Shown here piece by piece: positions 7,062 to 62,906 of a stretch of DNA of 64,000 bases (positions within the stretch are counted from its first letter, which is position 1; each line of letters begins with the position of its first letter). A program made the position numbers and the translations under genes. A model generated the notes under the pieces. It did no database searches. It saw only the letters and a list, made by a program, of their open reading frames with translations, and was not told the DNA's origin. Source of the DNA: an uncultured Leptospirales bacterium (GTDB lineage: Bacteria > Spirochaetota > UBA4802 > JAKQUI01); the NCBI GenBank assembly GCA_964652955.1, contig CAZZCF010000001.1, positions 12,555 to 76,554 of the forward strand, in the 5' to 3' direction.

Positions 7062-8486
7062 ATGCTGAAGCATCGAGCGAAAATATACCTCAAGAGCATC
7101 ATCAGGAAGATGCTATTCTTCTGCAGCGACATCTCGCTGCTGCTGTTATCATTCCTGATCGCCTATCAGGTCAGGGATATACTCTACGATGCCGGGCTGC
7201 TGATCATTCCCAATCCGCCGGTGCAGTACTTTTATCCCTACTGGTATCTTCTCCTCTTTCATATACTCTTTCTCTTCGTGTTTGATCTCTACCGCCTCCG
7301 CTTCCCCTACTGGCTCGAGGTGAAGAAAACCGTAAAGGCGATTGCGGCGGGAACCGTCTCGATATTTTTCATGCTCGCCCTTTTGAAGATATCACAGGAG
7401 GTGTCGAGATTTATCATCCTCTTCATCGGGCTCTTTGCCGCGCTGGCCATACCGGTTCTCCGGGCGCTGGTGAAATTTCTCCTCTTCAGGTTGAACCTGT
7501 GGCAGGCTGATGTCCTCGTCATTGCGAATCCCGACGCTGACTTCGACTCCTTCTATGAACGCCTTAACGAGAACTGGTATGTGGGATACCGGCCGGCCCT
7601 TCTCATCGATGTTTCCTCCATGGAGCGGACCGCTCTGTCCGAGGCGCTTTCCCATGTGCAGCTTGAACATATGATACGTGAGAACAATATCGTCCTGCCG
7701 ATACTCTACAAGCTGGATAAGAATGAGTTCTACGATATCTTCATCAGGATGGATATATATTTCGAGGATATCAAGCTGATTCCCGATCTGCACTCCCTCT
7801 TCGTAAACAACGTTCGTGTCGAAAACGACGGCAGCACTATCTATATCAACTTCGAAAACAATCTCCTGCGCTACAACAATCGGCTGCTCCAGTATCTCTT
7901 CAACAAGATTGCGAGCATTCTCATCTTCCTGTTCCTCCTGCCCCTTTTTGTGCTCCTCGGGGTGCTGATCAAGCTCGATTCCCGCGGTCCGGTACTGTAT
8001 CGAGCGCGGCGTATCGGCGCTGATAAAGCAGACTTCGATGTCTTTAAGTTCCGGACCATGTTCCGGGACGCAGACAGGAAGCTCCACGATATACTCGAAT
8101 CCGATCCGGCGCTCAGAAGGGAGTTCGAGCGGAGCTTCAAGCTCAGGAACGACCCCCGGATAACCCGTGTCGGCAGGTTCCTCAGAAAGACCTCCCTCGA
8201 TGAGCTCCCGCAGATCTTCAACGTGCTCCGCGGCGAGATGAACCTGGTCGGCCCCCGGCCCATCGTTCACGAGGAGATCGAGAAGTACGGAAATGCCTTC
8301 GATGAGCTCATGAAGGTAAAGCCGGGCGTAACCGGCCTCTGGCAGGTGAGCGGCCGGAGCGATGTCGACTACGAGAAGCGGGTGCAGCTTGACCTCTTCT
8401 ACATCAAGAACTGGTCTCTCTGGATGGATATTACGATTCTGATGAGGACCGTTCTCGTTGTCCTCGGGGGGAGGGGGGCCTATTGA
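7062..8486 (+). CDS. Undecaprenyl-phosphate sugar phosphotransferase (WbaP/WcaJ family, bacterial sugar transferase domain)
   Basis: C-terminal '[11 protein letters not shown]...[21 protein letters not shown]' is the hallmark of polyprenyl glycosyl-phosphotransferases; N-terminal TM block precedes it. Confidence 0.9.
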
Positions 8487-9796
8487 ATACGACCGGTCAT
8501 TCATGGGCGTACCGGTGGTCCTTTTACTCACTCTGCCTCTTTCTCCTCTTCTCCGGGATATCAATATCGGTTTCGCAGGGCGCCCTGATCCTTGCAATAC
8601 TCCTGTGGCTGCTGGGAAGGGTTTTGAAATATGATGATACTGTCTATTATCGGAGCGGCCTGGAACGCTATGTTCTCCCCTTCTATGTTATCTCCTTTCT
8701 GCTCGCCTTCATATCTTCACCCGCAATTAAGGGGAATCTGCTCTATTTGAAGGATACTGGGCTTGCAGTTCTCTGCTTTCTGGTTCCTTCGATGCTGCGG
8801 CGGAGAGAGGAGATGTCGAGAATAGTAAAGATTATTATCTTCATCGCTCTCTTCAATTCGGTTGTCGGCATCGCGCAGTATCTTACCGATATCGACTTCA
8901 TGAATGCATTCAGATACGGACTTTCCGACAAGAGAGCTTACCTGAGCTACGGGAATCGCCATGTCGTCGGTTTCCTCGGACATCATCTGACCTATGGCGG
9001 TTATATGATGATGATAGCAATACCCTTCATCTATCTGAGCTTTGTGAAGGAGGGTGAGAAGAAGGAACGGCTTTTCATAAAGGTTTCGGCCCTCCTCTCA
9101 GCCCTGTCAGTTATTCTCAGCTGGGCGCGCTCGGTTATTGTCTCCCTTCCCTTTGGAATTCTCCCGCTTCTGTTCAGAAAGAAGAAGGTTTTTTTCGCGC
9201 TCTTTTTCTCTCTGATATTGGTTGTCATCACCATCTTCACGCATTTCGGCCCCGAGGAGGGAATTGTAAAGAATTTTCAGGATCACAGCACACAACTTCG
9301 TGTTGTCATGTGGGAAGCTGCTTTCAGGACCTGGCTGAAGCATCCCTTCTTCGGCACCGGCGGAGGGAACTATCTTGAGAAGTTCAGAAAAGAGGTGGGG
9401 CCCATTTCGAGCAGGCCCGAGCAGCGAAAGCTGATGATAAAATCGAAACATTACAAGTGGGGGCTTCGAATGCTGGTGAGAAAGGGTTCGCATCCCCACA
9501 ACGACTATCTCAATCAGCTGGCGCGGAAGGGTATTATCGGATTTCTCGCGTACCTCTATATGCTCTTCGGAATCTTCAGGTATATGAGTGCAGGCGTGAA
9601 GGATATTGAGGACAGATTCTACCGGCATCTCGCCATGGGGCTCTTCGGCGCCTACTGCACATTTCTCGCCGCGTCGATGTTCCAGTGCTACTTCACCGAT
9701 GAGGAGAACCTCGCCATGTTCTGGTTCACCGTCGGGCTTTTCGCTGCCGTCGTCAGGGTGGTGAATGCGGAGAAGGTTAAGCAGAATTCTGATTGA
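8483..9796 (+). CDS. O-antigen ligase (Wzy_C) domain membrane protein
   Basis: Polytopic protein containing 'SHPHNDYLNQLARKGIIG', the conserved H-N-x-Y-L motif loop of the WaaL/O-antigen-ligase family. TTG start overlaps the upstream stop as TTGA. Confidence 0.75.
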   Translation: MNTTGHSWAYRWSFYSLCLFLLFSGISISVSQGALILAILLWLLGRVLKYDDTVYYRSGLERYVLPFYVISFLLAFISSPAIKGNLLYLKDTGLAVLCFLVPSMLRRREEMSRIVKIIIFIALFNSVVGIAQYLTDIDFMNAFRYGLSDKRAYLSYGNRHVVGFLGHHLTYGGYMMMIAIPFIYLSFVKEGEKKERLFIKVSALLSALSVILSWARSVIVSLPFGILPLLFRKKKVFFALFFSLILVVITIFTHFGPEEGIVKNFQDHSTQLRVVMWEAAFRTWLKHPFFGTGGGNYLEKFRKEVGPISSRPEQRKLMIKSKHYKWGLRMLVRKGSHPHNDYLNQLARKGIIGFLAYLYMLFGIFRYMSAGVKDIEDRFYRHLAMGLFGAYCTFLAASMFQCYFTDEENLAMFWFTVGLFAAVVRVVNAEKVKQNSD

Positions 9797-10037: not shown

Positions 10038-10904
10038 CTATCTCTCACATTGAACAGCATATCTCCCATCCGGAAAAACCGTGACCACAATCGTTCCGTC
10101 CCTGTACGTCCGATAGACCTTCGCTGTTCGCGTATACCTTTGAATAACTTTATCAGCCGGATAGCCGTTGATGTTTCCTTTATTGACGCTGATGATAACC
10201 GTCTCGGGCTTCACCGCTTCGATGAATTCAACAGTGGCCGTATCCAGCGCACCGTGATGGCCAGCTTTCAGAATATGCGCTTTCAGATTGACGCCCCTTT
10301 TCAGGAGCTCCCCCTCGGTGATACGATTTCCATCGCCCATGAGGAGGCATCGGAAAGTGCCGAACTCCAGCATGCAGACAAGTGAGCCGGTATTCCAGTC
10401 GGCGCTTCCTCTGCTTTTCGGCGGCCAGAGCACGGTCAGAGTGATGCCGTTAAAATGCAAGCGGTTGCCTGCACCGAGCGGCTCGTATTTCGGGTTTTCT
10501 CTTACCAGGTCACGGTACCAGCGGAAGAGCGGCTGCTCTTTTGCATGCCTGTTTATATCCTCGCCGTTATCGTAAATATGATAGAAGGGAATGAGCTGTG
10601 CAATGGCAAAGATGCCTCCCATGTGGTCCGGATGGGGATGGGTGAGGATGATATGACCAATCGTGCCGATGTGCTGTTTCTGCAGATATCTCAGGAGGCG
10701 AACGCCGGTTATCGGATTCCCCGTGTCGACGAGAATGCACTCCTTCGATGTACGGATGAGAATGGCGTCGCCTTCGCCAACATCGATGAAATGTATGCTC
10801 AGTTTCTCCGGAGGAGCGGTTTGGTCTGTGGCACAGGATAGTGCTTGAAGAGCGAACGAAATGAATATCGCTGACAGAAGAATTTGTTTTGTGCAAACAG
10901 TCAT
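10038..10904 (-). CDS. MBL-fold metallo-hydrolase, ComEC/Rec2 C-terminal-domain-like, probable lipoprotein
   Basis: 'HIILTHPHPDHMGG' HxHxDH metallo-beta-lactamase motif and a signal peptide ending 'ALSCATDQ'. Start is placed at Met23 of the track ORF (ATG 10904), because the upstream 22 codons lie inside repeat element 10900-10956. Confidence 0.75.
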   Translation of the reverse strand: MTVCTKQILLSAIFISFALQALSCATDQTAPPEKLSIHFIDVGEGDAILIRTSKECILVDTGNPITGVRLLRYLQKQHIGTIGHIILTHPHPDHMGGIFAIAQLIPFYHIYDNGEDINRHAKEQPLFRWYRDLVRENPKYEPLGAGNRLHFNGITLTVLWPPKSRGSADWNTGSLVCMLEFGTFRCLLMGDGNRITEGELLKRGVNLKAHILKAGHHGALDTATVEFIEAVKPETVIISVNKGNINGYPADKVIQRYTRTAKVYRTYRDGTIVVTVFPDGRYAVQCER

Positions 10905-10981: not shown

Positions 10982-11386
10982 TGATCTGTTGATCCGCATA
11001 ATCTCAATCTCGTACAGGCGGCAGGTGAGTGAAAAGCATGTCGCGTATTTCTCAAAGTCTCTGCACGTTAAAAGAGCCCGATTATAACTTGTTCGATGAT
11101 CGGAATTTGCCAATGCGAATACGGTGGTGCTCTATGAATTGAGCCACCAATAAGCATATAAGCTCTCAAAATGTATTTGTCAAGATAAATCAACTCTGCT
11201 GCGTTTATACACTGTGCAGATTATATTCAATGAAGACTTGACAGCCCGCAAAACATTATCTATCATGCAATCCTGCTATCCTGTCCAATTCTTTTCTTTT
11301 CACATGATTGAGGCTGATATGCTCGTGTGGAATGCGCTACGGGAATTCGTCTTTTCGAAGGCAGAAATAAAAAGGGGATTATCTGA

Positions 11387-11419
11387 CAGGATTACAGGAT
11401 AGATAACAGGATTACAGGA
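11387..11419 (+). repeat. Tandem direct repeat ACAGGATTACAGGA (2 copies, 5-nt spacer) immediately upstream of rfbA
   Basis: Exact 14-mer appears twice; the second copy supplies the AGGA Shine-Dalgarno 8 nt before the rfbA ATG. Confidence 0.8.
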
Positions 11420-12297: not shown

Positions 12298-12846
12298 ATG
12301 CCATTCACCTTCAGGAAGACTGGAATAGACGAGATTGTCGTTATCGAGCCGCAGCTTTATGGCGATCAACGAGGTTTTTTCCTTGAGACATATCGGGAGT
12401 CCGATTTCAGGAAATGGGGCATCGCTGATGTGTTCGTACAGGACAACCACTCATTTTCGGTAAAAGGGGTGATTCGCGGTCTGCACTATCAGATTCCTCC
12501 GCGTGCGCAGGCCAAGCTGATTTATGTCGTTCAGGGAGCGGTCTTGGATGTCGCCGTCGATGTCCGGCGGGGCTCGCCCACCTTCGCGAAGTTTGTCTCT
12601 GAAGAGCTCTCCGATTCAAACAGGTGGATGATGTACATTCCCGAGGGCTTCGCCCATGGATTTTGTGCTCTCACCGATAGCGTGCATATCATATATAAGT
12701 GCACCAGGGAATTTTCACCGGAGCACGATTCCGGCGTTCGATGGGACGATGAAGAGATCGGCATCGACTGGCCGGTTGACGCGCCCATTCTCTCCGAGCG
12801 TGACCGGAATCTGCCATTCCTTCGGGAAGCGGTGGTGTTTGATTAG
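12298..12846 (+). CDS. rfbC: dTDP-4-dehydrorhamnose 3,5-epimerase
   Basis: 182-aa cupin; 'IEPQLYGDQRGFFLETYRE' and 'GLHYQ' are RmlC hallmarks. ATG abuts the rfbA stop. Confidence 0.9.
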   Translation: MPFTFRKTGIDEIVVIEPQLYGDQRGFFLETYRESDFRKWGIADVFVQDNHSFSVKGVIRGLHYQIPPRAQAKLIYVVQGAVLDVAVDVRRGSPTFAKFVSEELSDSNRWMMYIPEGFAHGFCALTDSVHIIYKCTREFSPEHDSGVRWDDEEIGIDWPVDAPILSERDRNLPFLREAVVFD

Positions 12847-12949
12847 TGATTAGTGAATAGTAACGGGTAACGAGTGACGAGTGACAGGTAACGAGTAACA
12901 AGTAACTGATCAATAACTAGTCACTCGTTACTCGTCACATGTCACTATT
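12845..12949. repeat. Heptad-periodic palindromic repeat element (RGTRAYN units followed by their inverted complement)
   Basis: AGTGATT AGTGAAT AGTAACG GGTAACG AGTGACG AGTGACA GGTAACG AGTAACA AGTAACT | AACTAGT CACTCGT TACTCGT CACATGT CACTATT; read directly. A second copy of the family lies at 29631-29716. Confidence 0.7.
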
Positions 12950-27691: not shown

Positions 27692-27965
27692 AGGGTTTCT
27701 CTTGTTTCCTGGAAAAGCTTAAAAGTCCAGACCGGATTACGGGATGATAAGGAAATTTTTTCAATCCTGATAATCTGAACAGAGTGTTTAAATGTTTAAT
27801 TCAGTTGAAACGATGATGAGGCTCGCAAAAGATAAGGAGAAAGGGAATAAGAATAACCACAACATGAAATCCTGTTATCCCGTCTAATTTTTTTCCTTTC
27901 CATAATGTGAGTGTCTCAGGATCGTAGATGATGTGATCAGAGGGTTTATTTACAAGGAGGAAACC

Positions 27966-29633
27966 ATGGAGGAGAAGCCCTGGCATCGCCATTATGATTA
28001 CTGTGTCCCCACCACGATTCGCTATCCGAGAATTCCTGCGCATGAAATACTTCAGATTCCGGTGAGCGGCTTTCCGGACAAAACAGCGCTGTACTTTTAC
28101 GGCACGGAGATGACATTCTGGGAGCTCCGGCAGCGTGTTCTGATCATGGCAACCGCCCTTCAGTCGCTGGGCGTGCGGAAGGGGGATCGGGTCGGCGTGC
28201 ATCTTCCCAACTGCCCGCAGTTCGTCATAGCGTATTACGCGGTCATGTCGCTCGGTGCGATTGTGGTCAACCTCAACCCCATGTATACCGCCGAGGAGCT
28301 CAAGGCCGTTGCGGCGAATACCGGCATGACCGCGCTGTTTACCTTCGATATGTTCATTGAGAACGTCCGGAAGATGCTCGAGGCGGTTGAGATTCCCCGG
28401 GTGATCGTCACACGGGTAACCGATTTTATCGACGGGATTCCCCGGAGCACGCCGGAGGATCTCGGCTTGGAGGAGGGGTGGCATCACTTCTCGCTGCTCA
28501 TGGATGCCGTTACGAGCGTGAAGCGCCCCCGCGTTGATATAGTCCCGGATGATCCGGCGCTCATACAGTTCACCGGCGGAACAACCGGCATTCCCAAGGG
28601 GGCGGTGTTGACCCACGGGAATCTCGTTGCGGCGACGCTGCAGTGCGCGCTCTGGGGGTCGGCGACAATCGGGTATATCGCGCCGGAGCGGCGGAACGTG
28701 CTCTCGGTGCTTCCCTATTTTCACGTCTACGGTGCCATTGTCGCCCTGAGCTGGGGTATGTTCAGCTGCGCAACACAGATAGTGGTTCCCCGCTTTGAGA
28801 TCGATGAGCTCATGGGTATCATCGCGAATTTCAATGAGATTACCTTCTTCCCGGCCGTTCCCACCATGATAAACGCGGTTATCAATCACCCGAAGGCGGA
28901 TGAGCTGAACCTCGCCAGGCGGCTCGGGCTCCTGAACAGCGGAGGCGGTCCCATGCCGGTAGAGCTCATTGAGAAGGCCCGGGATATGAACATCAACTAC
29001 AGCGAGGGGTGGGGCATGAGCGAGACCACCTCCCTCGGCATCGCGAACCCCGTTCTCGGCCTCAAGAAGAGCGGTGGGATAGGTATCCCCTTCCCCGATA
29101 CCGATATTCGCATTGTCGATGTTGAAAAGGGCGTGGAGGAGGTCCCCCGGGGGGAACCGGGCGAGATTGTTATCAGGAGCCCGCTGGTCATGAAGGAGTA
29201 CTGGAACAATCCCGAGGAAACGGCGGGGCAGCTCAGGGATGGATGGCTCTCTACCGGTGATATCGCCTATTTTGATGATGATGACTATGTTTTTATCGTC
29301 GATCGGAAGAAGGATATGATAATTGCCGGCGGTTACAATATATACCCGCGGGAGATCGACGAGGTGCTCTACGAGCATCCCAAGATTGCCGATGCCGTTG
29401 CCGTGGGAATTCCCGATGAGTATCGCGGCGAAACAGTCAAGGCGTACATCGTGCCCCGAGAAGGGGAGACCCTCACCGAAAAGGAGGTCATCGATTTCTG
29501 CAAGGAGAAGCTCGCGCCCTACAAGCAGCCGAAGGTTGTCGAGTTCCGAAAAGAGCTTCCGAAATCGGCCGTGGGAAAGATCCTTCGAAAGATACTCCGC
29601 GACGAGGAGATGGGGAAGGGGAAGGGGAAGTAG
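27966..29633 (+). CDS. Long-chain acyl-CoA synthetase / AMP-dependent synthetase-ligase
   Basis: AMP-binding 'TGGTTGIPKGAVLTHGNL' and a 'GEIVIRSPLVMKEYWNNPEETA' region. Start is ATG 27966 after a GGAGGAAACC RBS. Confidence 0.9.
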   Translation: MEEKPWHRHYDYCVPTTIRYPRIPAHEILQIPVSGFPDKTALYFYGTEMTFWELRQRVLIMATALQSLGVRKGDRVGVHLPNCPQFVIAYYAVMSLGAIVVNLNPMYTAEELKAVAANTGMTALFTFDMFIENVRKMLEAVEIPRVIVTRVTDFIDGIPRSTPEDLGLEEGWHHFSLLMDAVTSVKRPRVDIVPDDPALIQFTGGTTGIPKGAVLTHGNLVAATLQCALWGSATIGYIAPERRNVLSVLPYFHVYGAIVALSWGMFSCATQIVVPRFEIDELMGIIANFNEITFFPAVPTMINAVINHPKADELNLARRLGLLNSGGGPMPVELIEKARDMNINYSEGWGMSETTSLGIANPVLGLKKSGGIGIPFPDTDIRIVDVEKGVEEVPRGEPGEIVIRSPLVMKEYWNNPEETAGQLRDGWLSTGDIAYFDDDDYVFIVDRKKDMIIAGGYNIYPREIDEVLYEHPKIADAVAVGIPDEYRGETVKAYIVPREGETLTEKEVIDFCKEKLAPYKQPKVVEFRKELPKSAVGKILRKILRDEEMGKGKGK

Positions 29634-29716
29634 TAACGGGTTAATAGTTAATAGTGAATAGTGATTGGTAATCGTATGTCTTTTTAACGTGTCACTTGTT
29701 ACCTGTCACTCGTTTC
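29631..29716. repeat. Second copy of the heptad-periodic repeat family (GTAACGG GTTAATA GTTAATA GTGAATA GTGATTG ... GTCACTTGTTACCTGTCACTCG)
   Basis: It shares the motifs AGTGAATAGT, GTAACGGGT and GTCACTCGT with the 12845-12949 element and likewise begins at a stop codon. Confidence 0.6.
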
Positions 29717-29827
29717 AAATAAAATAATCTGCGTCCATCTGCGGTTAATTGTTTAAGCAGTAAAGGGAACATTAGGAGTCATAATCGCGGTAGTGGTGTT
29801 TGCTGCTGAGTGAACAGAGATATCCGG

Positions 29828-30751
29828 CTACTCAATCATCGAGTCCAGAATCCGGTGAATCTCCTCGATGCTCTCTGCGTGAACGAGCCGGTTTCTCGTC
29901 CGGGAGGCGTTTTTGATCCCGTGCATGTATTTCACCAGATGCTTCCTCATGAGGATTATCCCCCGCTGGCCGTAGAAGGCCATCATGAGCCCGAGATGCT
30001 CTCTGATCTGATCGATGCGCTCGCCGAGGTCAGGCGTTTCCCCCGAGAAAATCCAGGGATTGCCGAGGGCTCCCCGCCCTATCATCACGGCCGGGCATCC
30101 TGAATATCGCAGCCGCTCCCGTGCCTCGGAATGGGATCTGATATCGCCATTCCCTATCACGGGGATTGAGAGGTCCCGGTTAATCTCACGGATGATATTC
30201 CAGTTCGCCTCCTCGGCAAACCGCTGTGATCGGGTTCTGCCGTGTACGGTGATGAGGGAGATGCCCGCGTCCTGCAGTGCCCGGGCGACGGTCATGTAGT
30301 TCAGGGTGTGCGCGTCCCAGCCGATCCTTATTTTCGCCGAAACCGGAGCCTCTCCCCCGTCGATGACCCTTTCCGCAATGGCTTTCATGTGTTCCGGCTG
30401 CCGAAGGAGGGCGGCTCCCGATCCGCTCTTGCAGACCTTCGGGGCGCAGCATCCGAAATTGATATCGATGATATCCGGTTTGAGCGCCGAGACCTGCCGA
30501 GCCGCTTCACCCATGATGTCGGGATCATTCCCGAAGAGCTGAATGCCGATGGGGCGCTCCTCCTCGGTAAAGCGCAGCAGATCCCGCGTTTTCCTGCTCT
30601 CGCTGACGATACCCTGCGCGCTGATGAGCTCGGAGAAGACGAGAACGGCGCCCTGTTTTCTGGCGATCCTCCTGAAGGGCGAATCGGTGTAGCCCGCCAT
30701 CGGCGCGAGAACGAGCTCTCCCGCTATGTTCAGATCTTTTAATTGTATCAT
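29828..30751 (-). CDS. dus: tRNA-dihydrouridine synthase
   Basis: 'LAPMAGYTDSPFRRIARKQGA...IQLFGNDP...INFGCCAPKV' contains the Dus FMN/catalytic Cys region. Confidence 0.9.
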   Translation of the reverse strand: MIQLKDLNIAGELVLAPMAGYTDSPFRRIARKQGAVLVFSELISAQGIVSESRKTRDLLRFTEEERPIGIQLFGNDPDIMGEAARQVSALKPDIIDINFGCCAPKVCKSGSGAALLRQPEHMKAIAERVIDGGEAPVSAKIRIGWDAHTLNYMTVARALQDAGISLITVHGRTRSQRFAEEANWNIIREINRDLSIPVIGNGDIRSHSEARERLRYSGCPAVMIGRGALGNPWIFSGETPDLGERIDQIREHLGLMMAFYGQRGIILMRKHLVKYMHGIKNASRTRNRLVHAESIEEIHRILDSMIE

Positions 30752-35022: not shown

Positions 35023-36843
35023 ATGAAAGGGATGTTTCAGTTTTCCATCGTTGCCGTATCACTCTCTCTCATATCCTGTAATAGCCTCTTTTATGATATT
35101 TCTTCACCCTCCAGCGAATATATAAAGCCGGAAGTGGCGTATGTGTATCCCGAGCCGGGTTTAGTTGATGTGCCGACAAACACATCGATACTCGTATCCT
35201 TCAACAAGGAGATTGATATCGCGTCAATCGATAGCGAGGCCTTGCATGTTGTCGATGAGTTTGGCAATGTATTGCGGGGGGAGATTGCCTTTCACGAGAA
35301 CAGCATCGCCATATTCGAGCCCGAAGAGCCGATGATTCCGCATACGGCATACACGGCAATGCTGAAAAAAGATGTCCGGGATATGGAGGGGGGAGCGCTT
35401 GACGCTGATTATTCATGGAGCTTTATAACCGGCTCGGAGGAGGACATGGCTTCACCGGAGATTGTTTCGACCCTCCCGGAGCATAATGCGGCATGCCCCA
35501 CCGAGAGCGTCTCGATAGTGGCCACTTTCAACGAGGACATCAATCCTCTGTCGATAACGCCGGAAACCTTTCGTGTTGAGGACGGAGAGGATATCGTCGC
35601 GGGAGCGATAAGCTATGATGCCGGCAGGAGATCGATCATATTCGTCCCCTACGGGCGGTTGAATGACAATTCCCGTTACCGGGTTGCCGTTATGAACATA
35701 AGGGATCTCGCGAAAAATCCCCTGAGCGCGGAATTCGTCTGGAATTTCAGAACCGGCGCGATTCGAATAGAGCTCGAGGATGCCAGGAACTGCGAGAACG
35801 GCTTCGCCACCTTCGGGCATCCGCCGCGAAGGCTGTTCAAGGATGATGGATTCCCGCTCTCGGAGGGGACCGATTTTACCTACGATTTGTCAATCGCCTC
35901 TCTCTTCGACCGAGGGATAAATGGAGCCTTCGAGCCCGGAAAATACTTCCGGATTGTCGAGAACGGGAAAAATATTGTGGATAGTAACGGCCTTGCGCTG
36001 GTTCCGGTGGCCAGGATGATCCTCTTCAGCGATATTAATCGGATTGCTCCGAAGCCGTATCAGTGCTATATCGATCCGATGAGCGGATATTTTATACTGC
36101 CTCGTCCCGATTACTGGAGCAGGCTGGAGAGCCTGGATGATATTGTCGAGGCGGAAATTTATGACACCGTGCCGAGTTACAGCGGGAATCAGTTGTCCTG
36201 TACGACCGGCAAGTTCGGAAAGTGTATTTATCAGTATGAAACCTCACCAGAGCATATCGATACTAATATTTTCTACATGTACCCTTTCGGTGATGCTGAA
36301 AAAACTTCATCTCGGGGAACGGCATCTTTCTGGTTGCGTTGTAATCCTCCTTCGGGGAAATATTACATATACAGCCATTTTGTTTTCGGGAATAACAATG
36401 TACACTTTACCTGTGATTACTGGGGCCAGAAAATTATTAAAATAAATGTTAACGGAGTTGTAGTTGCGAGTAAAAATTTAAATTGGACGGGATGGACACA
36501 TGTTTATGTCGTATGGGCGGAGGATCGAAGCCTCTCGGATAACAAGACTGTACGGGTATTTATCAACGGTCAGGAATATGTTTCAACAACCGCGATAATA
36601 GATACGGAGGGTGCTACATATTATAAAGGATTAATGACCTTTGTCCTTAATGAACAATACGGATACAATTACTGGGACAACATCAAAATCTGGAAGCACG
36701 TCGTCTCCGAGGATCCCTCCTGGGAGTACAACAGCGGCGCCGGAAGGGAGGATGCCCTTCACGAAATGTACGGTCCCGACAACGGCTACAGGCCCCTCCT
36801 CACCGGTCCCGGAAACGGGGTGGGGTACTACTACGTGCCGTGA
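35023..36843 (+). CDS. Large surface lipoprotein with two SbsA/Big-like Ig domains and a C-terminal LamG/ConA-like domain
   Basis: Lipobox 'LISCNS'; two repeats of 'Y(V/I)xP..G..DVPTNTSI.V.F...I' type; the C-terminal part is beta-rich and resembles the lectin/LamG fold. ATG 35023 follows AGGAGG. Confidence 0.6.
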   Translation: MKGMFQFSIVAVSLSLISCNSLFYDISSPSSEYIKPEVAYVYPEPGLVDVPTNTSILVSFNKEIDIASIDSEALHVVDEFGNVLRGEIAFHENSIAIFEPEEPMIPHTAYTAMLKKDVRDMEGGALDADYSWSFITGSEEDMASPEIVSTLPEHNAACPTESVSIVATFNEDINPLSITPETFRVEDGEDIVAGAISYDAGRRSIIFVPYGRLNDNSRYRVAVMNIRDLAKNPLSAEFVWNFRTGAIRIELEDARNCENGFATFGHPPRRLFKDDGFPLSEGTDFTYDLSIASLFDRGINGAFEPGKYFRIVENGKNIVDSNGLALVPVARMILFSDINRIAPKPYQCYIDPMSGYFILPRPDYWSRLESLDDIVEAEIYDTVPSYSGNQLSCTTGKFGKCIYQYETSPEHIDTNIFYMYPFGDAEKTSSRGTASFWLRCNPPSGKYYIYSHFVFGNNNVHFTCDYWGQKIIKINVNGVVVASKNLNWTGWTHVYVVWAEDRSLSDNKTVRVFINGQEYVSTTAIIDTEGATYYKGLMTFVLNEQYGYNYWDNIKIWKHVVSEDPSWEYNSGAGREDALHEMYGPDNGYRPLLTGPGNGVGYYYVP

Positions 36844-36994
36844 GGATGTAGCTAGTTGTTAATTGACCGATTGCCAATATTTTAGAAAAGACCATAGCAT
36901 TTCAATAAATATTGTTAGTGTAATTTCAAATCGAATCGAAGTGATGTAATTAATTTATTTTGCATAGGAATTCAATAAAGCAGAAGAGGGTGGA

Positions 36995-37759
36995 ATGAGA
37001 AGATTTTATATTATACTTATACCCATACTGTTGTTTATGGTTAGTAATTTGTTAATAGTTATTCCTGATAATTGCAGGACCCTTGATGATTTGATCAGTC
37101 AATTGAATTTTTTCAGTTATGTATTAAAGATATTGTTTGTTTTGTTAGCAATTGCTATTTTTCTAATATACAATTTAACAGCTGTAATGGGAACTTTGAA
37201 TAAATTTATTCAATTTGATACGATTAGACCGGATATAATTGGCAAGTTGGTTGAAGAATCTTTAAACATTTTTAAGGAATTGGGTATTGAATTTAGAGTT
37301 AATGTAATGCTGGTTAAATTTAAAATCATTGTATGGAAACGATTTATAAAATTTCTTCGGCCATTTATTTTTCAAAAACAATTCAAAACCGTTTATCATT
37401 ACAATATGGAGCATGATCGAGATAAGGATTTAGGGCTTATAACAAAGCAGGGTGTTGCAGGTTTGGCTTATAATGATCCCGAGGGGAAACATAGAATCGT
37501 TGATTTTATGAATGTTGATAGGAAATTTTTTAAATTAGATAAAGATCAACTTGATAGAACAAAGAGTATTAAATTTGTAATTAGCACTCCAATTCTTAAA
37601 TGGAATCATGAAACTGGTAAATTAACTGATAAGGTTATCGGAGTGGTCAACATTGATAGTAGAAATAATTCATTTAAGATTATACAGGAAAAAGTTGTAA
37701 TTGAGGATTTAGTTCAGTACAGTTACAATATAGCTGATTATGTCGCAAAGTTATATTAA
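36995..37759 (+). CDS. AT-rich islet gene: N-terminal 2-TM segment plus GAF-like domain protein
   Basis: Local GC is roughly 30% against about 57% for its neighbours. Two TM helices are followed by 'GLITKQGVAGLAYNDPEGKHRIVDF...SIKFVISTPIL...KVIGVVNIDS', which matches the GAF ligand-binding core pattern. Confidence 0.5.
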   Translation: MRRFYIILIPILLFMVSNLLIVIPDNCRTLDDLISQLNFFSYVLKILFVLLAIAIFLIYNLTAVMGTLNKFIQFDTIRPDIIGKLVEESLNIFKELGIEFRVNVMLVKFKIIVWKRFIKFLRPFIFQKQFKTVYHYNMEHDRDKDLGLITKQGVAGLAYNDPEGKHRIVDFMNVDRKFFKLDKDQLDRTKSIKFVISTPILKWNHETGKLTDKVIGVVNIDSRNNSFKIIQEKVVIEDLVQYSYNIADYVAKLY

Positions 37760-37804
37760 TTTGATTTCTTTTATGAGAATTGTATATTCAATACAGAGGC
37801 TAAA

Positions 37805-38011
37805 ATGAATAGCAAAAAGAAAAAAGACGACAATAAAACAATGCTTGTAGAAATAGAAGGTATGCCTGGAGTGTATACCTCAACTGGCAGTTGTCATTCA
37901 ACCGATATTGATTATTCTACATTGGTAGATAGAATATTAAAGCCGTTAGAAAAAACAAGAAAAATAAAAGGTCCAATTCCCAAATGGCCTATAAAAGGTG
38001 TGGAAGAATGA
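37805..38011 (+). CDS. Small hypothetical protein (68 aa) in the AT-rich islet
   Basis: Open frame with Lys-rich N-terminus; no recognisable motif. Coding status uncertain. Confidence 0.3.
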   Translation: MNSKKKKDDNKTMLVEIEGMPGVYTSTGSCHSTDIDYSTLVDRILKPLEKTRKIKGPIPKWPIKGVEE

Positions 38012-61517: not shown

Positions 61518-62585
61518 TCAGAGCCGCTCCTGTATGTACTTGGTGAGTATGTTTCGGGCGGGATCTGACATCTCCAGGAGGCGGAAGGTGTAGTACGAAA
61601 CGCTCTCCTCGGTGATGGTCCTGTCGGAGATGACCTTTGAGGTAATGTTTATCTTGAACTCCGAGAGCTCGAATTGCAGCGAGTAGCTCTTCTCGTAATC
61701 CAGCTTCTCTGCGACGCGCACTATCGCCTCGAACTCGTTCATCTTGTAAATAGTGCCGTTTATTTGTACAGCTTCACCGAGCCCGGCTTCCTCCTCCGCT
61801 TTGAGTTCGGTTATGATACATGAGATGATCGTATCGATGTAGGGATGGCGCTCCTCTTCACCACGGGTGAAGACATCGGGGAGGGGAATGCCTATCAATT
61901 TATTTTCAACAGTGGCAATGGCAGTATCAAAGGTATATTCGGCATCTCCCTTTCTCCAGAGATATACCCTGATCGGCTTACCGGCGAAGTCCCTATATTC
62001 GCCGGGATTGCGAAACAGCTTAACGGAGAGCATCTTGTCCTTATTCCCGATGACGCGGCCGATAAAGACATCATTCTCTTCGGTGAAGAAACAGAGGAGG
62101 ATGTCGGTCTCGAGATCGGTTAGGCGATCCAGCGTTTTTTTAACGCTCTTTCGGTGATAGAGCTTTTCATAGGTTTTAATGATGTCGATGCTTATCTGAT
62201 GGAGTGATTCCTGCAGCTCTTCCTGCTCACGCAGAAACGGTAAAAAGCTTCCCAGGGATAATTCAAAGAGATCCGGATTCTGCAGGATATTAATGGAATC
62301 CTTGAGTTTCAGCATATTTGCCAATCCGTTCAGAATCTTGATCTGGTAATTGGAGAGCCCGAGCTGCTTCGTCTTGAAGAGGAAGAGCTGTTCTGCATGC
62401 ATCTTCTTCTTTTGCAGGTAGTGATTGTACCTGAACAGTATGAGAAAGGCGAGCACAAGGAGTACTACCAGGATGATGAGCACCATTTCGATTGCAGAGG
62501 GAACAGGCCATTTCACACCCCATACCGTTTCTATCATGATGAGGCACTCCTGCTTTTTTTTACGCCCGCAGGTGCCGTGTAGCAA
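61518..62585 (-). CDS. Membrane-anchored protein with YcgR/PilZ-like C-terminal region (weak)
   Basis: One TM helix ('MVLIILVVLLVLAFLILF'), then a beta-rich region loosely resembling YcgR-N plus PilZ; the RxxxR / DxSxxG motifs are not canonical. Start is uncertain. Confidence 0.35.
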   Translation of the reverse strand: MLHGTCGRKKKQECLIMIETVWGVKWPVPSAIEMVLIILVVLLVLAFLILFRYNHYLQKKKMHAEQLFLFKTKQLGLSNYQIKILNGLANMLKLKDSINILQNPDLFELSLGSFLPFLREQEELQESLHQISIDIIKTYEKLYHRKSVKKTLDRLTDLETDILLCFFTEENDVFIGRVIGNKDKMLSVKLFRNPGEYRDFAGKPIRVYLWRKGDAEYTFDTAIATVENKLIGIPLPDVFTRGEEERHPYIDTIISCIITELKAEEEAGLGEAVQINGTIYKMNEFEAIVRVAEKLDYEKSYSLQFELSEFKINITSKVISDRTITEESVSYYTFRLLEMSDPARNILTKYIQERL

Positions 62586-62906
62586 TCGATTTATTGAACC
62601 TGTCGACGCAGGTGGGTACCTTCATGATAAGCTTCAACCTTCTTCTGCCGAGGAAGCTTGATCTCCACTTTCAGATTCAGGTTCCCTTCATTTTTGCTGT
62701 TGGCTCAAAAATGCAAAATACTATCACGTGCACTGCAGGCTGTTTGATAAGATAACAAAACAGGGTGAATAAAAGCAATTAAAAAATAAATTTTATCGAT
62801 GGAATCACGATTGAGGAGGGCTAAAAAAAGGTGGACAGACGCCGTTGCGCACTGTAGGGTACCTTGCCGCGGATATATACGGATATATTTGTACGGGAGT
62901 ATTTAG

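Follow-up and report, generated by a model that had tools for sequence, protein, structure and literature searches.

The closest described parallel to the repeats reported here is the (GGGANTN)n family of Xanthomonas, for which 186 and 183 arrays have been counted, 89-93% of them intergenic, with heterogeneous units (Rehm et al. 2015, PMC4692102). On average 28 nt separate a Xanthomonas array from the upstream ORF and 160 nt from the next one; 70-75 of the arrays occur in convergent pairs, and most are transcribed, while no function or regulatory role was found for them (PMC4692102). Heptamers also lie near the recF and recO genes of Nostoc, where a heptamer-binding protein has been postulated (bioRxiv 10.1101/2022.06.06.494920). 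In the survey of Mrazek et al. (2007), as relayed by PMC4679880, heptanucleotides are the most abundant long simple sequence repeat (SSR) in most of the repeat-rich prokaryotic genomes with 5-11-nt repeats, and heptanucleotide LSSRs are described there as intergenic and phylogenetically scattered, with slippage as their proposed origin. Direct repeats of TAACTGA are known from marine Beggiatoaceae, Cyanobacteria and Bacteroidetes; MacGregor (2015, PMC4679880) suspects a post-transcriptional role for them and proposes S1, Csp and CsrA as binders. Stem-loops at the 3' ends of transcripts are reported across bacterial clades and whatever the mechanism of termination (PMC13613805).

Heptad arrays in the window and beyond its end

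The loci considered here lie in a 64,000-nt stretch of DNA from an uncultured Leptospirales bacterium (the window), one behind rfbC (copy 1) and the other behind an acyl-CoA synthetase gene (copy 2). We are highly confident that both are heptanucleotide SSR arrays of the published bacterial kind (LSSR, STRR-like), built on the unit G-T-R-A-Y-N-N. TRF returns a period of 7 at both loci, and a search of the window for three tandem GTRAYNN units with at most one mismatch yields 13 matches where 0.13 are expected, all of them within copies 1 and 2. With up to two mismatches the matches number 20 against 2.2 expected, and four of these lie outside the two copies. The sequence-only reading of this DNA had described a 7-nt periodicity, a start exactly at a stop codon and a following series of inverted complement units at both loci, all of which is borne out: each array begins at the TAG of its upstream gene, and the direct heptads are followed by five inverted ones in copy 1 and four in copy 2 (Table 1).

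Table 1. Coordinates of the heptad arrays and associated features in the window
Feature	Position	Strand	Details
rfbC (dTDP-4-dehydrorhamnose 3,5-epimerase)	12298..12846	+	ORF list; Pfam dTDP_sugar_isom on identical product in contigs L001-L010
Copy 1 direct arm	12839..12908	+	One degenerate unit and nine phased GTRAYNN heptads; purine-rich
Copy 1 inverted arm	12911..12945	-	GTGACAT, GTGACGA, GTAACGA, GTGACTA, GTTATTG
CTAG within copy 1 inverted arm, near hairpin tip	12917..12920		IS5-like insertion target, contigs L006, L008
Acyl-CoA synthetase (AMP-binding) gene	27933..29633	+	TAG stop 29631-29633
Copy 2 direct arm	29633..29674	+	Six AT-rich variants: GTAACGG, GTTAATA x2, GTGAATA, GTGATTG, GTAATCG
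Copy 2 inverted arm	29689..29716	-	Four heptads: GAAACGA, GTGACAG, GTAACAA, GTGACAC
dus	29828..30751	-	Convergent with the AMP-binding ligase gene

Copy 1 lies within the rfbA-rfbC / rfbD-rfbB cluster, between co-directional genes. The TAG stop of rfbC (12844-12846) overlaps its first heptads and the degenerate unit, TTGATTA, extends back into the final rfbC codons. The phased units that follow from 12846 read GTGATTA, GTGAATA, GTAACGG, GTAACGA, GTGACGA, GTGACAG, GTAACGA, GTAACAA and GTAACTG. Every unit of this direct arm holds TGA or TAA, with stops in all three plus-strand frames, and the two arms are nearly contiguous, their junction being the palindrome TGATCA (12906-12911). Copy 2 is set between two convergent genes, those of the AMP-binding ligase and dus. 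Its first base is the G of the acyl-CoA synthetase TAG stop, a short spacer separates its arms, and a fifth, degenerate unit precedes the four inverted heptads.

A third array was found 1.4 kb past the end of the window (contig L214 16242-16269, at about window coordinate 65446), composed of the units GTAACGA, GTGACGA, GTAACAG and GTAATAT on the sense strand of the upstream gene, which encodes a STAS-domain protein and is separated from ispF by a 650-nt gap. Relative to the upstream stop codon, copies 1 and 2 both start at 0 and the third array at about 117 nt. The third array has no inverted heptads and is bracketed by a 10-nt inverted repeat, ATTATATTAC / GTAATATAAT. The 10 kb upstream of the window hold no heptad array, and about 80 kb of this genome contain three arrays.

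The 27 units of this genome are conserved unevenly. G1 and A4 are present in 27/27 and T2 in 26/27, R3 is kept in 25/27 (12 G, 13 A) and C5 in 19/27, and position 6 is random. The T-R-A of the heptad reads TAA or TGA and each unit hence carries a stop codon; since a 7-nt step, not being divisible by 3, shifts the frame each time, a run of three units closes every frame of the sense strand. When copies 1 and 2 are aligned only the phased G-T-.-A columns match. The three sequence blocks that had been noticed in both copies are present in each, but their order differs, as do the spacers and flanks. Shared units in a differing order and setting indicate separate arrays rather than copies of one dispersed element, and the initial description of a single element in two copies is therefore abandoned. 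The supposition that the class was unrecognised fares no better, given the intergenic heptanucleotide repeats already published (PMC4692102, PMC4679880).

Some other features of the window were observed alongside the arrays. At the gathering threshold of Rfam the sole match in the window is a 6S RNA (62560-62744, minus strand, RF00013, 94.8 bits); relaxing this threshold yields matches far below the gathering score, to microRNA-precursor and other models for copy 1 and to a single sRNA model for copy 2. The composition profile shows a low-GC segment at 36001-38000 (0.36 versus about 0.51 across the window). The acyl-CoA synthetase owes its GKGKGK C-terminus to a perfect hexanucleotide repeat, (GGGGAA) x3.2 at 29612-29630, which abuts the stop codon and the heptads. 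Upstream of rfbA, two oppositely directed arrays that repeat roughly every 8 nt (11260-11283 and 11386-11419) flank about 100 nt. The left one is CTATCCTG-like and pyrimidine-rich, and the right one, which ends 9 nt before the rfbA ATG, is ACAGGATT-like and purine-rich with AGGA in each unit. These opposed arrays fold at -49 kcal/mol (z -3.2), and here too the strand richer in purines is, on each side, the sense strand of the neighbouring gene.

Folding of the two copies

Copy 1 folds at -41.3 kcal/mol on the plus strand (z -4.7) and at -42.2 kcal/mol on the minus strand (z -6.0), and several 7-nt pairing registers are possible between its arms. Arm-to-arm complementarity amounts to about 75-86%; by an estimate, not a computation, any two arrays drawn from one unit family seem bound by construction to come close to this value. 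The plus strand of copy 2 reaches -18.6 kcal/mol (z -0.26), 72 of 200 shuffles folding equally well, and its minus strand (z -0.69) is likewise no better than shuffled sequence. The long imperfect hairpin that the sequence-only reading had seen at both loci, folded here on both strands, is thus retained for copy 1 and dropped for copy 2. The label 'palindromic' fits both sites insofar as it refers to arrays that oppose each other. Considering also that the third array is devoid of inverted heptads, hairpin formation is not a constant property of the family.

Variation between strains and among relatives

Several metagenome assemblies from JGI, ENA and Logan contain contigs identical to the window; from the identifiers we take the JGI samples to be Salton Sea hypersaline sediment. 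In a second strain, 0.5-0.75% diverged, copies 1 and 3 are identical, and copy 2 is identical across the four contigs compared. No variation in array copy number was found between strains 0.5-0.75% apart or among the contigs of several samples, so that slippage is not frequent now. The arrays, identical as they are in close strains, do not behave as phase-variable SSRs (contingency loci), and they sit after stop codons and not in promoters or reading frames.

In this second strain, at 0.6% divergence, a 1323-bp IS5-like element is inserted in the CTAG near the tip of the copy 1 hairpin (L006 2910-4232, and L008). It encodes a 366-aa DDE_Tnp_1/DUF772 transposase, has 15-bp terminal inverted repeats (CAGTTTCCTGAAAAA) and has duplicated the CTAG as its target site; the insertion point is also where contigs L007 and L009 break. 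An intact hairpin is therefore dispensable.

The nearest relatives of the acyl-CoA synthetase are found in Desulfobacterota MAGs, at about 70% protein identity, and judged by this one protein the bacterium would probably be placed in Desulfobacterota. A search of 1.27 Mb around such relatives, from several phyla, gave a single phased hit, and on this sequence comparison the arrays are apparently not conserved at that distance. The sequence-only reading was to be refuted if there were only two copies and these had no conservation in related genomes; the outcome is mixed, with a third array present but no conservation in the 1.27 Mb of relatives' loci. None of the metagenome matches of at least 4 kb that were compared resembles this genome in tetranucleotide content, the best locus having a correlation to the window of 0.69 versus 0.88-0.98 for true pieces of the genome. 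A BLAST search of copy 1 against plasmids returned stretches of Lactiplantibacillus plasmids annotated as 'hypothetical protein' and one short Rhizobium match.

Heptad arrays in a wider sample

Four tandem GTRACNN units were matched in at least 120 viral contigs, and the exact 19-mer GTAACGAGTGACGAGTRAC in at least 120 metagenome stretches. Among the matches listed, the metagenome contigs have 34-63% GC and some hold eight arrays in 12 kb. One such contig, L293 (12.4 kb, 62% GC), carries eight GTRACGA arrays and is far denser in them than the window. Tandem strings of a GTRACGA-like unit were not found in the searchable literature.

As a control, viral contigs were scanned for this 19-mer and for three permutations of the unit that keep its composition. 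The real unit, GTAACGAGTGACGAGTRAC, gave 3 viral stretches, and the controls based on TGCARAG, GCTRAAG and GAGRTCA gave 3, 28 and 17, respectively. Those control matches that were inspected are likewise heptad arrays mosaic for A and G, and in many cases they face an inverted arm. A view of GTRACGA as a special unit shared horizontally was rejected on these grounds, the permuted heptads being equally or more frequent and of the same mosaic and hairpin anatomy. The phenomenon is generic to heptads and not tied to the GTRAC sequence.

Two cases from this sample are described here in their own right. In contig L332 (66% GC, another organism), GTAACGA heptad hairpins recur at 8220-8420, 9275-9460 and 10630-10860 and share their loops and flanks (CCGGAG...CTCCGG and 'cccgcatcctcagaaac...ccacaaactccgg'); they have the appearance of a REP/MITE-like composite that was copied, not of independent arrays. 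The related viral contigs L338 (3917-3935) and L339 (1887-1946) apparently hold one locus in opposite orientations. Between the two, as we read them, every A/G state of the left-arm units is switched, and the right arm shows the corresponding switch of its T/C states. After a register shift of one unit the arms would still pair; this is a single anecdote of co-variation between arms.

Placement and polarity of the arrays

For an analysis of placement, GTRAC arrays were oriented with the purine-rich strand up and compared with crude ORF calls. The left neighbour is a same-strand ORF at 55/81 metagenome and 45/75 viral loci, and the array is nearer to the left than to the right gene at ratios of 58:22 and 45:30, respectively. 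The median distance to the same-strand left ORF is 9 nt in metagenomes and 12 nt in viruses, a closeness that is somewhat inflated because an array terminates any sense ORF that reads into it. A stop-to-stop ORF test placed many arrays 'inside' antisense ORFs, which is at least partly an artefact since the antisense strand of an array is free of stops. A loose unit definition (4/5 core positions) produced 799 arrays, amounted to noise and was discarded.

Arrays were counted as paired when at least two inverted units lay within 120 nt. Inverted units are found downstream of 56/216 GTRAC arrays (26%) and upstream of 0/216. The control heptad families have convergent versus divergent partners at 39:0, 10:0 and 2:0 (51:0 in total), and a database-wide scan for both arrangements found the purine arm first in 9 stretches (11 sites) and the reverse in 0. 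In all paired arrays counted the purine-rich arm is the 5' one, which is a clean result. Unrelated sequence, in most cases 15-60 nt of it, separates the paired arms.

Two simple explanations of the paired arrays were considered. Stop codons were rejected as its cause because GAGRTCA arrays have their stops on the pyrimidine-rich strand and still place the purine-rich arm 5'; the rule follows purine content, not stops. That the pairs are two gene-end arrays meeting between convergent genes was also rejected, as paired arrays are more frequent between co-directional genes (26) than between convergent ones (14). Slippage alone does not readily account for a strict purine-arm-first rule.

Possible origin and function

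The explanation that we consider best overall, and about as probable as its negation, is that the loci are heptanucleotide SSR arrays of in-situ origin with a stem-loop role for copy 1. Each array would have arisen at its own site rather than having been pasted in, slipped-strand mispairing being the mechanism proposed in the literature. Once transcribed, the arms of copy 1 would pair in several 7-nt registers to form an imperfect stem of about 16-20 bp or more. It is proposed that this stem-loop, which has no U-tract and occupies a 3' or intercistronic position, could mark the 3' end of the rfbA-rfbC message or protect it as an exonuclease barrier. Alternatively, it might act as a partial stop to read-through into rfbD-rfbB. 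Its action may be likened to that of REP elements or of the stem-loops of selectively processed operons. An RNA stem-loop role of copy 1 in the rfb transcript is put forward only tentatively, whereas copy 2 and the third array, with little or no structure, may have no effect. The terminator or REP-like role suggested at the outset survives in this restricted form, as a stem-loop that is most plausible for copy 1; it is at odds with the missing U-tract and with the insignificant fold of copy 2.

A neutral origin is unlikely though far from negligible. The arrays would then be slippage debris tolerated in the non-coding DNA just past stops, where stop-bearing units are harmless to the upstream frame, and the hairpin would be an accident of two same-family arrays lying head to head. 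Such a reading agrees with the lack of a known function in the best-studied parallel, Xanthomonas (PMC4692102), with the matching or higher counts of the permuted control heptads, with the unstructured copy 2 and third array, with the tolerated IS insertion near the tip of copy 1 and with the absence of arrays from the loci of the acyl-CoA synthetase relatives, one phased hit apart. It does not sit well with substitutions that spare G1, T2 and A4 and leave position 6 random, with the strict polarity of the GTRAC pairs, the control families and the database-wide scan, with the closeness of the arrays to a same-strand ORF upstream, with the frequent occurrence of pairs between co-directional genes, so that they are not merely gene-end arrays meeting, or with arrays that remain unchanged between strains. 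Position-biased unit conservation and strict polarity speak for something beyond neutral slippage; what speaks against a strong or constant function is the weak fold of copy 2, the lack of a partner at most arrays and the tolerated IS.

A broader proposition, which would go beyond the SSR arrays with a stem-loop at copy 1 that are favoured here, is that heptad arrays of many different units form one general class of gene-3'-end elements in uncultured bacteria and their phages, with a purine-rich sense strand, a purine-rich arm that is always 5' in pairs, a selected periodicity and a reader that moves in 7-nt steps. We regard it as improbable. If it were true, RNA polymerase, Rho, the ribosome or a single-strand-binding domain could be the common 7-nt-step reader, and the class would insulate neighbouring transcription units in both directions.

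Slightly more improbable still is an array of protein-binding sites, in which a factor with a 7-nt or 7-bp footprint would read the G-T-R-A of each unit and coat the array, either on single-stranded RNA (cold-shock or S1-type domains) or on duplex DNA in the manner of a ribbon-helix-helix repressor. Conservation at specific positions with two free positions per unit is what such a factor might leave behind, as is the strict polarity of the pairs. The units of Xanthomonas have a like pattern of fixed and free positions (PMC4692102), binders have been proposed for the TAACTGA repeats (PMC4679880), and a heptamer-binding protein has been postulated in Nostoc (bioRxiv 10.1101/2022.06.06.494920). 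However, heptads of unrelated sequence behave alike in different genomes, which argues against one conserved binder, and the inter-arm spacers of unrelated sequence, mostly 15-60 nt, are also unfavourable.

A precedent for a heptad-reading repressor exists. The omega repressor of plasmid pSM19035 is a ribbon-helix-helix protein that binds runs of heptads, but its heptad WATCACW is resembled by the AT-rich end units alone. Of these only AGTGATT fits the omega-type consensus. Omega-type operators are contiguous heptads at promoters, and the arrays here lie after genes; their arm arrangement is the divergent one that omega is reported to bind poorly.

Very improbable, finally, is a mobile or copied palindromic element of the REP/REPIN or MITE-like kind that would have been spread by a transposase. 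The extragenic position and the hairpin shape are compatible with it, and in contig L332 several sites do carry heptad hairpins embedded in a longer unit whose loops and flanks are shared. On the other hand, nothing collinear is shared by the three arrays, nor have they a spacer, a terminal repeat or a target duplication in common, and the further matches in the 64 kb are at chance level. For copies 1 and 2 in particular, no collinear palindrome homology of the REP/REPIN/BIME type was found, nor, at either copy, the terminal inverted repeats, target-site duplication or collinear copies of a MITE. Canonical Rho-independent terminators are equally improbable: the position after gene ends, and of copy 2 between convergent genes, would suit them, but the stems exceed those of terminators by far in length and are poorer in GC, neither element is followed by a T-run or U-tract, and no terminator-like site overlaps either of them, the lone plus-strand one nearby being a separate small hairpin at 29729-29744, outside the copy 2 heptads.

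Comparison with known heptanucleotide repeats

The GTRAYNN arrays share several traits of the Xanthomonas (GGGANTN)n family, to which they are closest. At least three 7-nt units follow each other head to tail above chance, the units are heterogeneous with some positions fixed and others free, the arrays are intergenic and close behind the upstream ORF, and convergent pairs occur, in both window copies as in about a quarter of the wider sample. The Xanthomonas GGGAATC/(GGGANTN)n repeats and the GGGGAYT repeats of Nostoc, which are dispersed and about 90% intergenic, have in common with them a bias towards the upstream ORF, pairs capable of forming stem-loops, a purine-rich strand that comes first and the lack of any link to gene function (PMC4692102). 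The Xanthomonas and Nostoc units contain G-tracts and are quadruplex-capable, whereas GTRAYNN has no G-tracts and a stop codon in every unit. Moreover, those repeats number hundreds of arrays in cultured Gammaproteobacteria and Cyanobacteria, whereas the uncultured bacterium considered here has three arrays within about 80 kb.

Surveys of LSSRs and of cyanobacterial STRRs count near-perfect repeats, while the GTRAYNN arrays are mosaics of unit variants and showed no length polymorphism between the strains examined. The TAACTGA repeats (PMC4679880) resemble the GTRAYNN arrays in being 7-nt, intergenic and dispersed and in containing stop codons (TAA, TGA). They differ in lying just upstream of start codons, as opposed to just after stop codons in copies 1 and 2, and in having one indirect repeat among 170 sets (PMC4679880), as opposed to the pairing of copies 1 and 2 with inverted arrays.

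REP/BIME elements and the 3' stem-loops of selectively processed operons (PMC4423207, PMC8219983) provide the stable stem-loop without a U-tract on which the proposal for copy 1 is modelled. Nevertheless, REPs are copies of one conserved palindrome, whereas the GTRAYNN arrays have only the 7-nt unit in common. Mobilisation by RAYT transposases is a further feature of REPs.

The arrays extend a class that is known but still unexplained to an uncultured bacterium and add to it a GTRACGA-like unit. In annotation, such arrays should be labelled as simple-sequence repeats and not as new RNA genes or mobile elements. Despite the reported abundance of heptanucleotide repeats no function has yet been shown for them, and arrays of GTRAC as well as of arbitrary control heptads are widespread in metagenomes, just behind same-strand genes. 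The polarity rule is the result most worth carrying forward from the comparison, as it offers a concrete experimental handle on these repeats.
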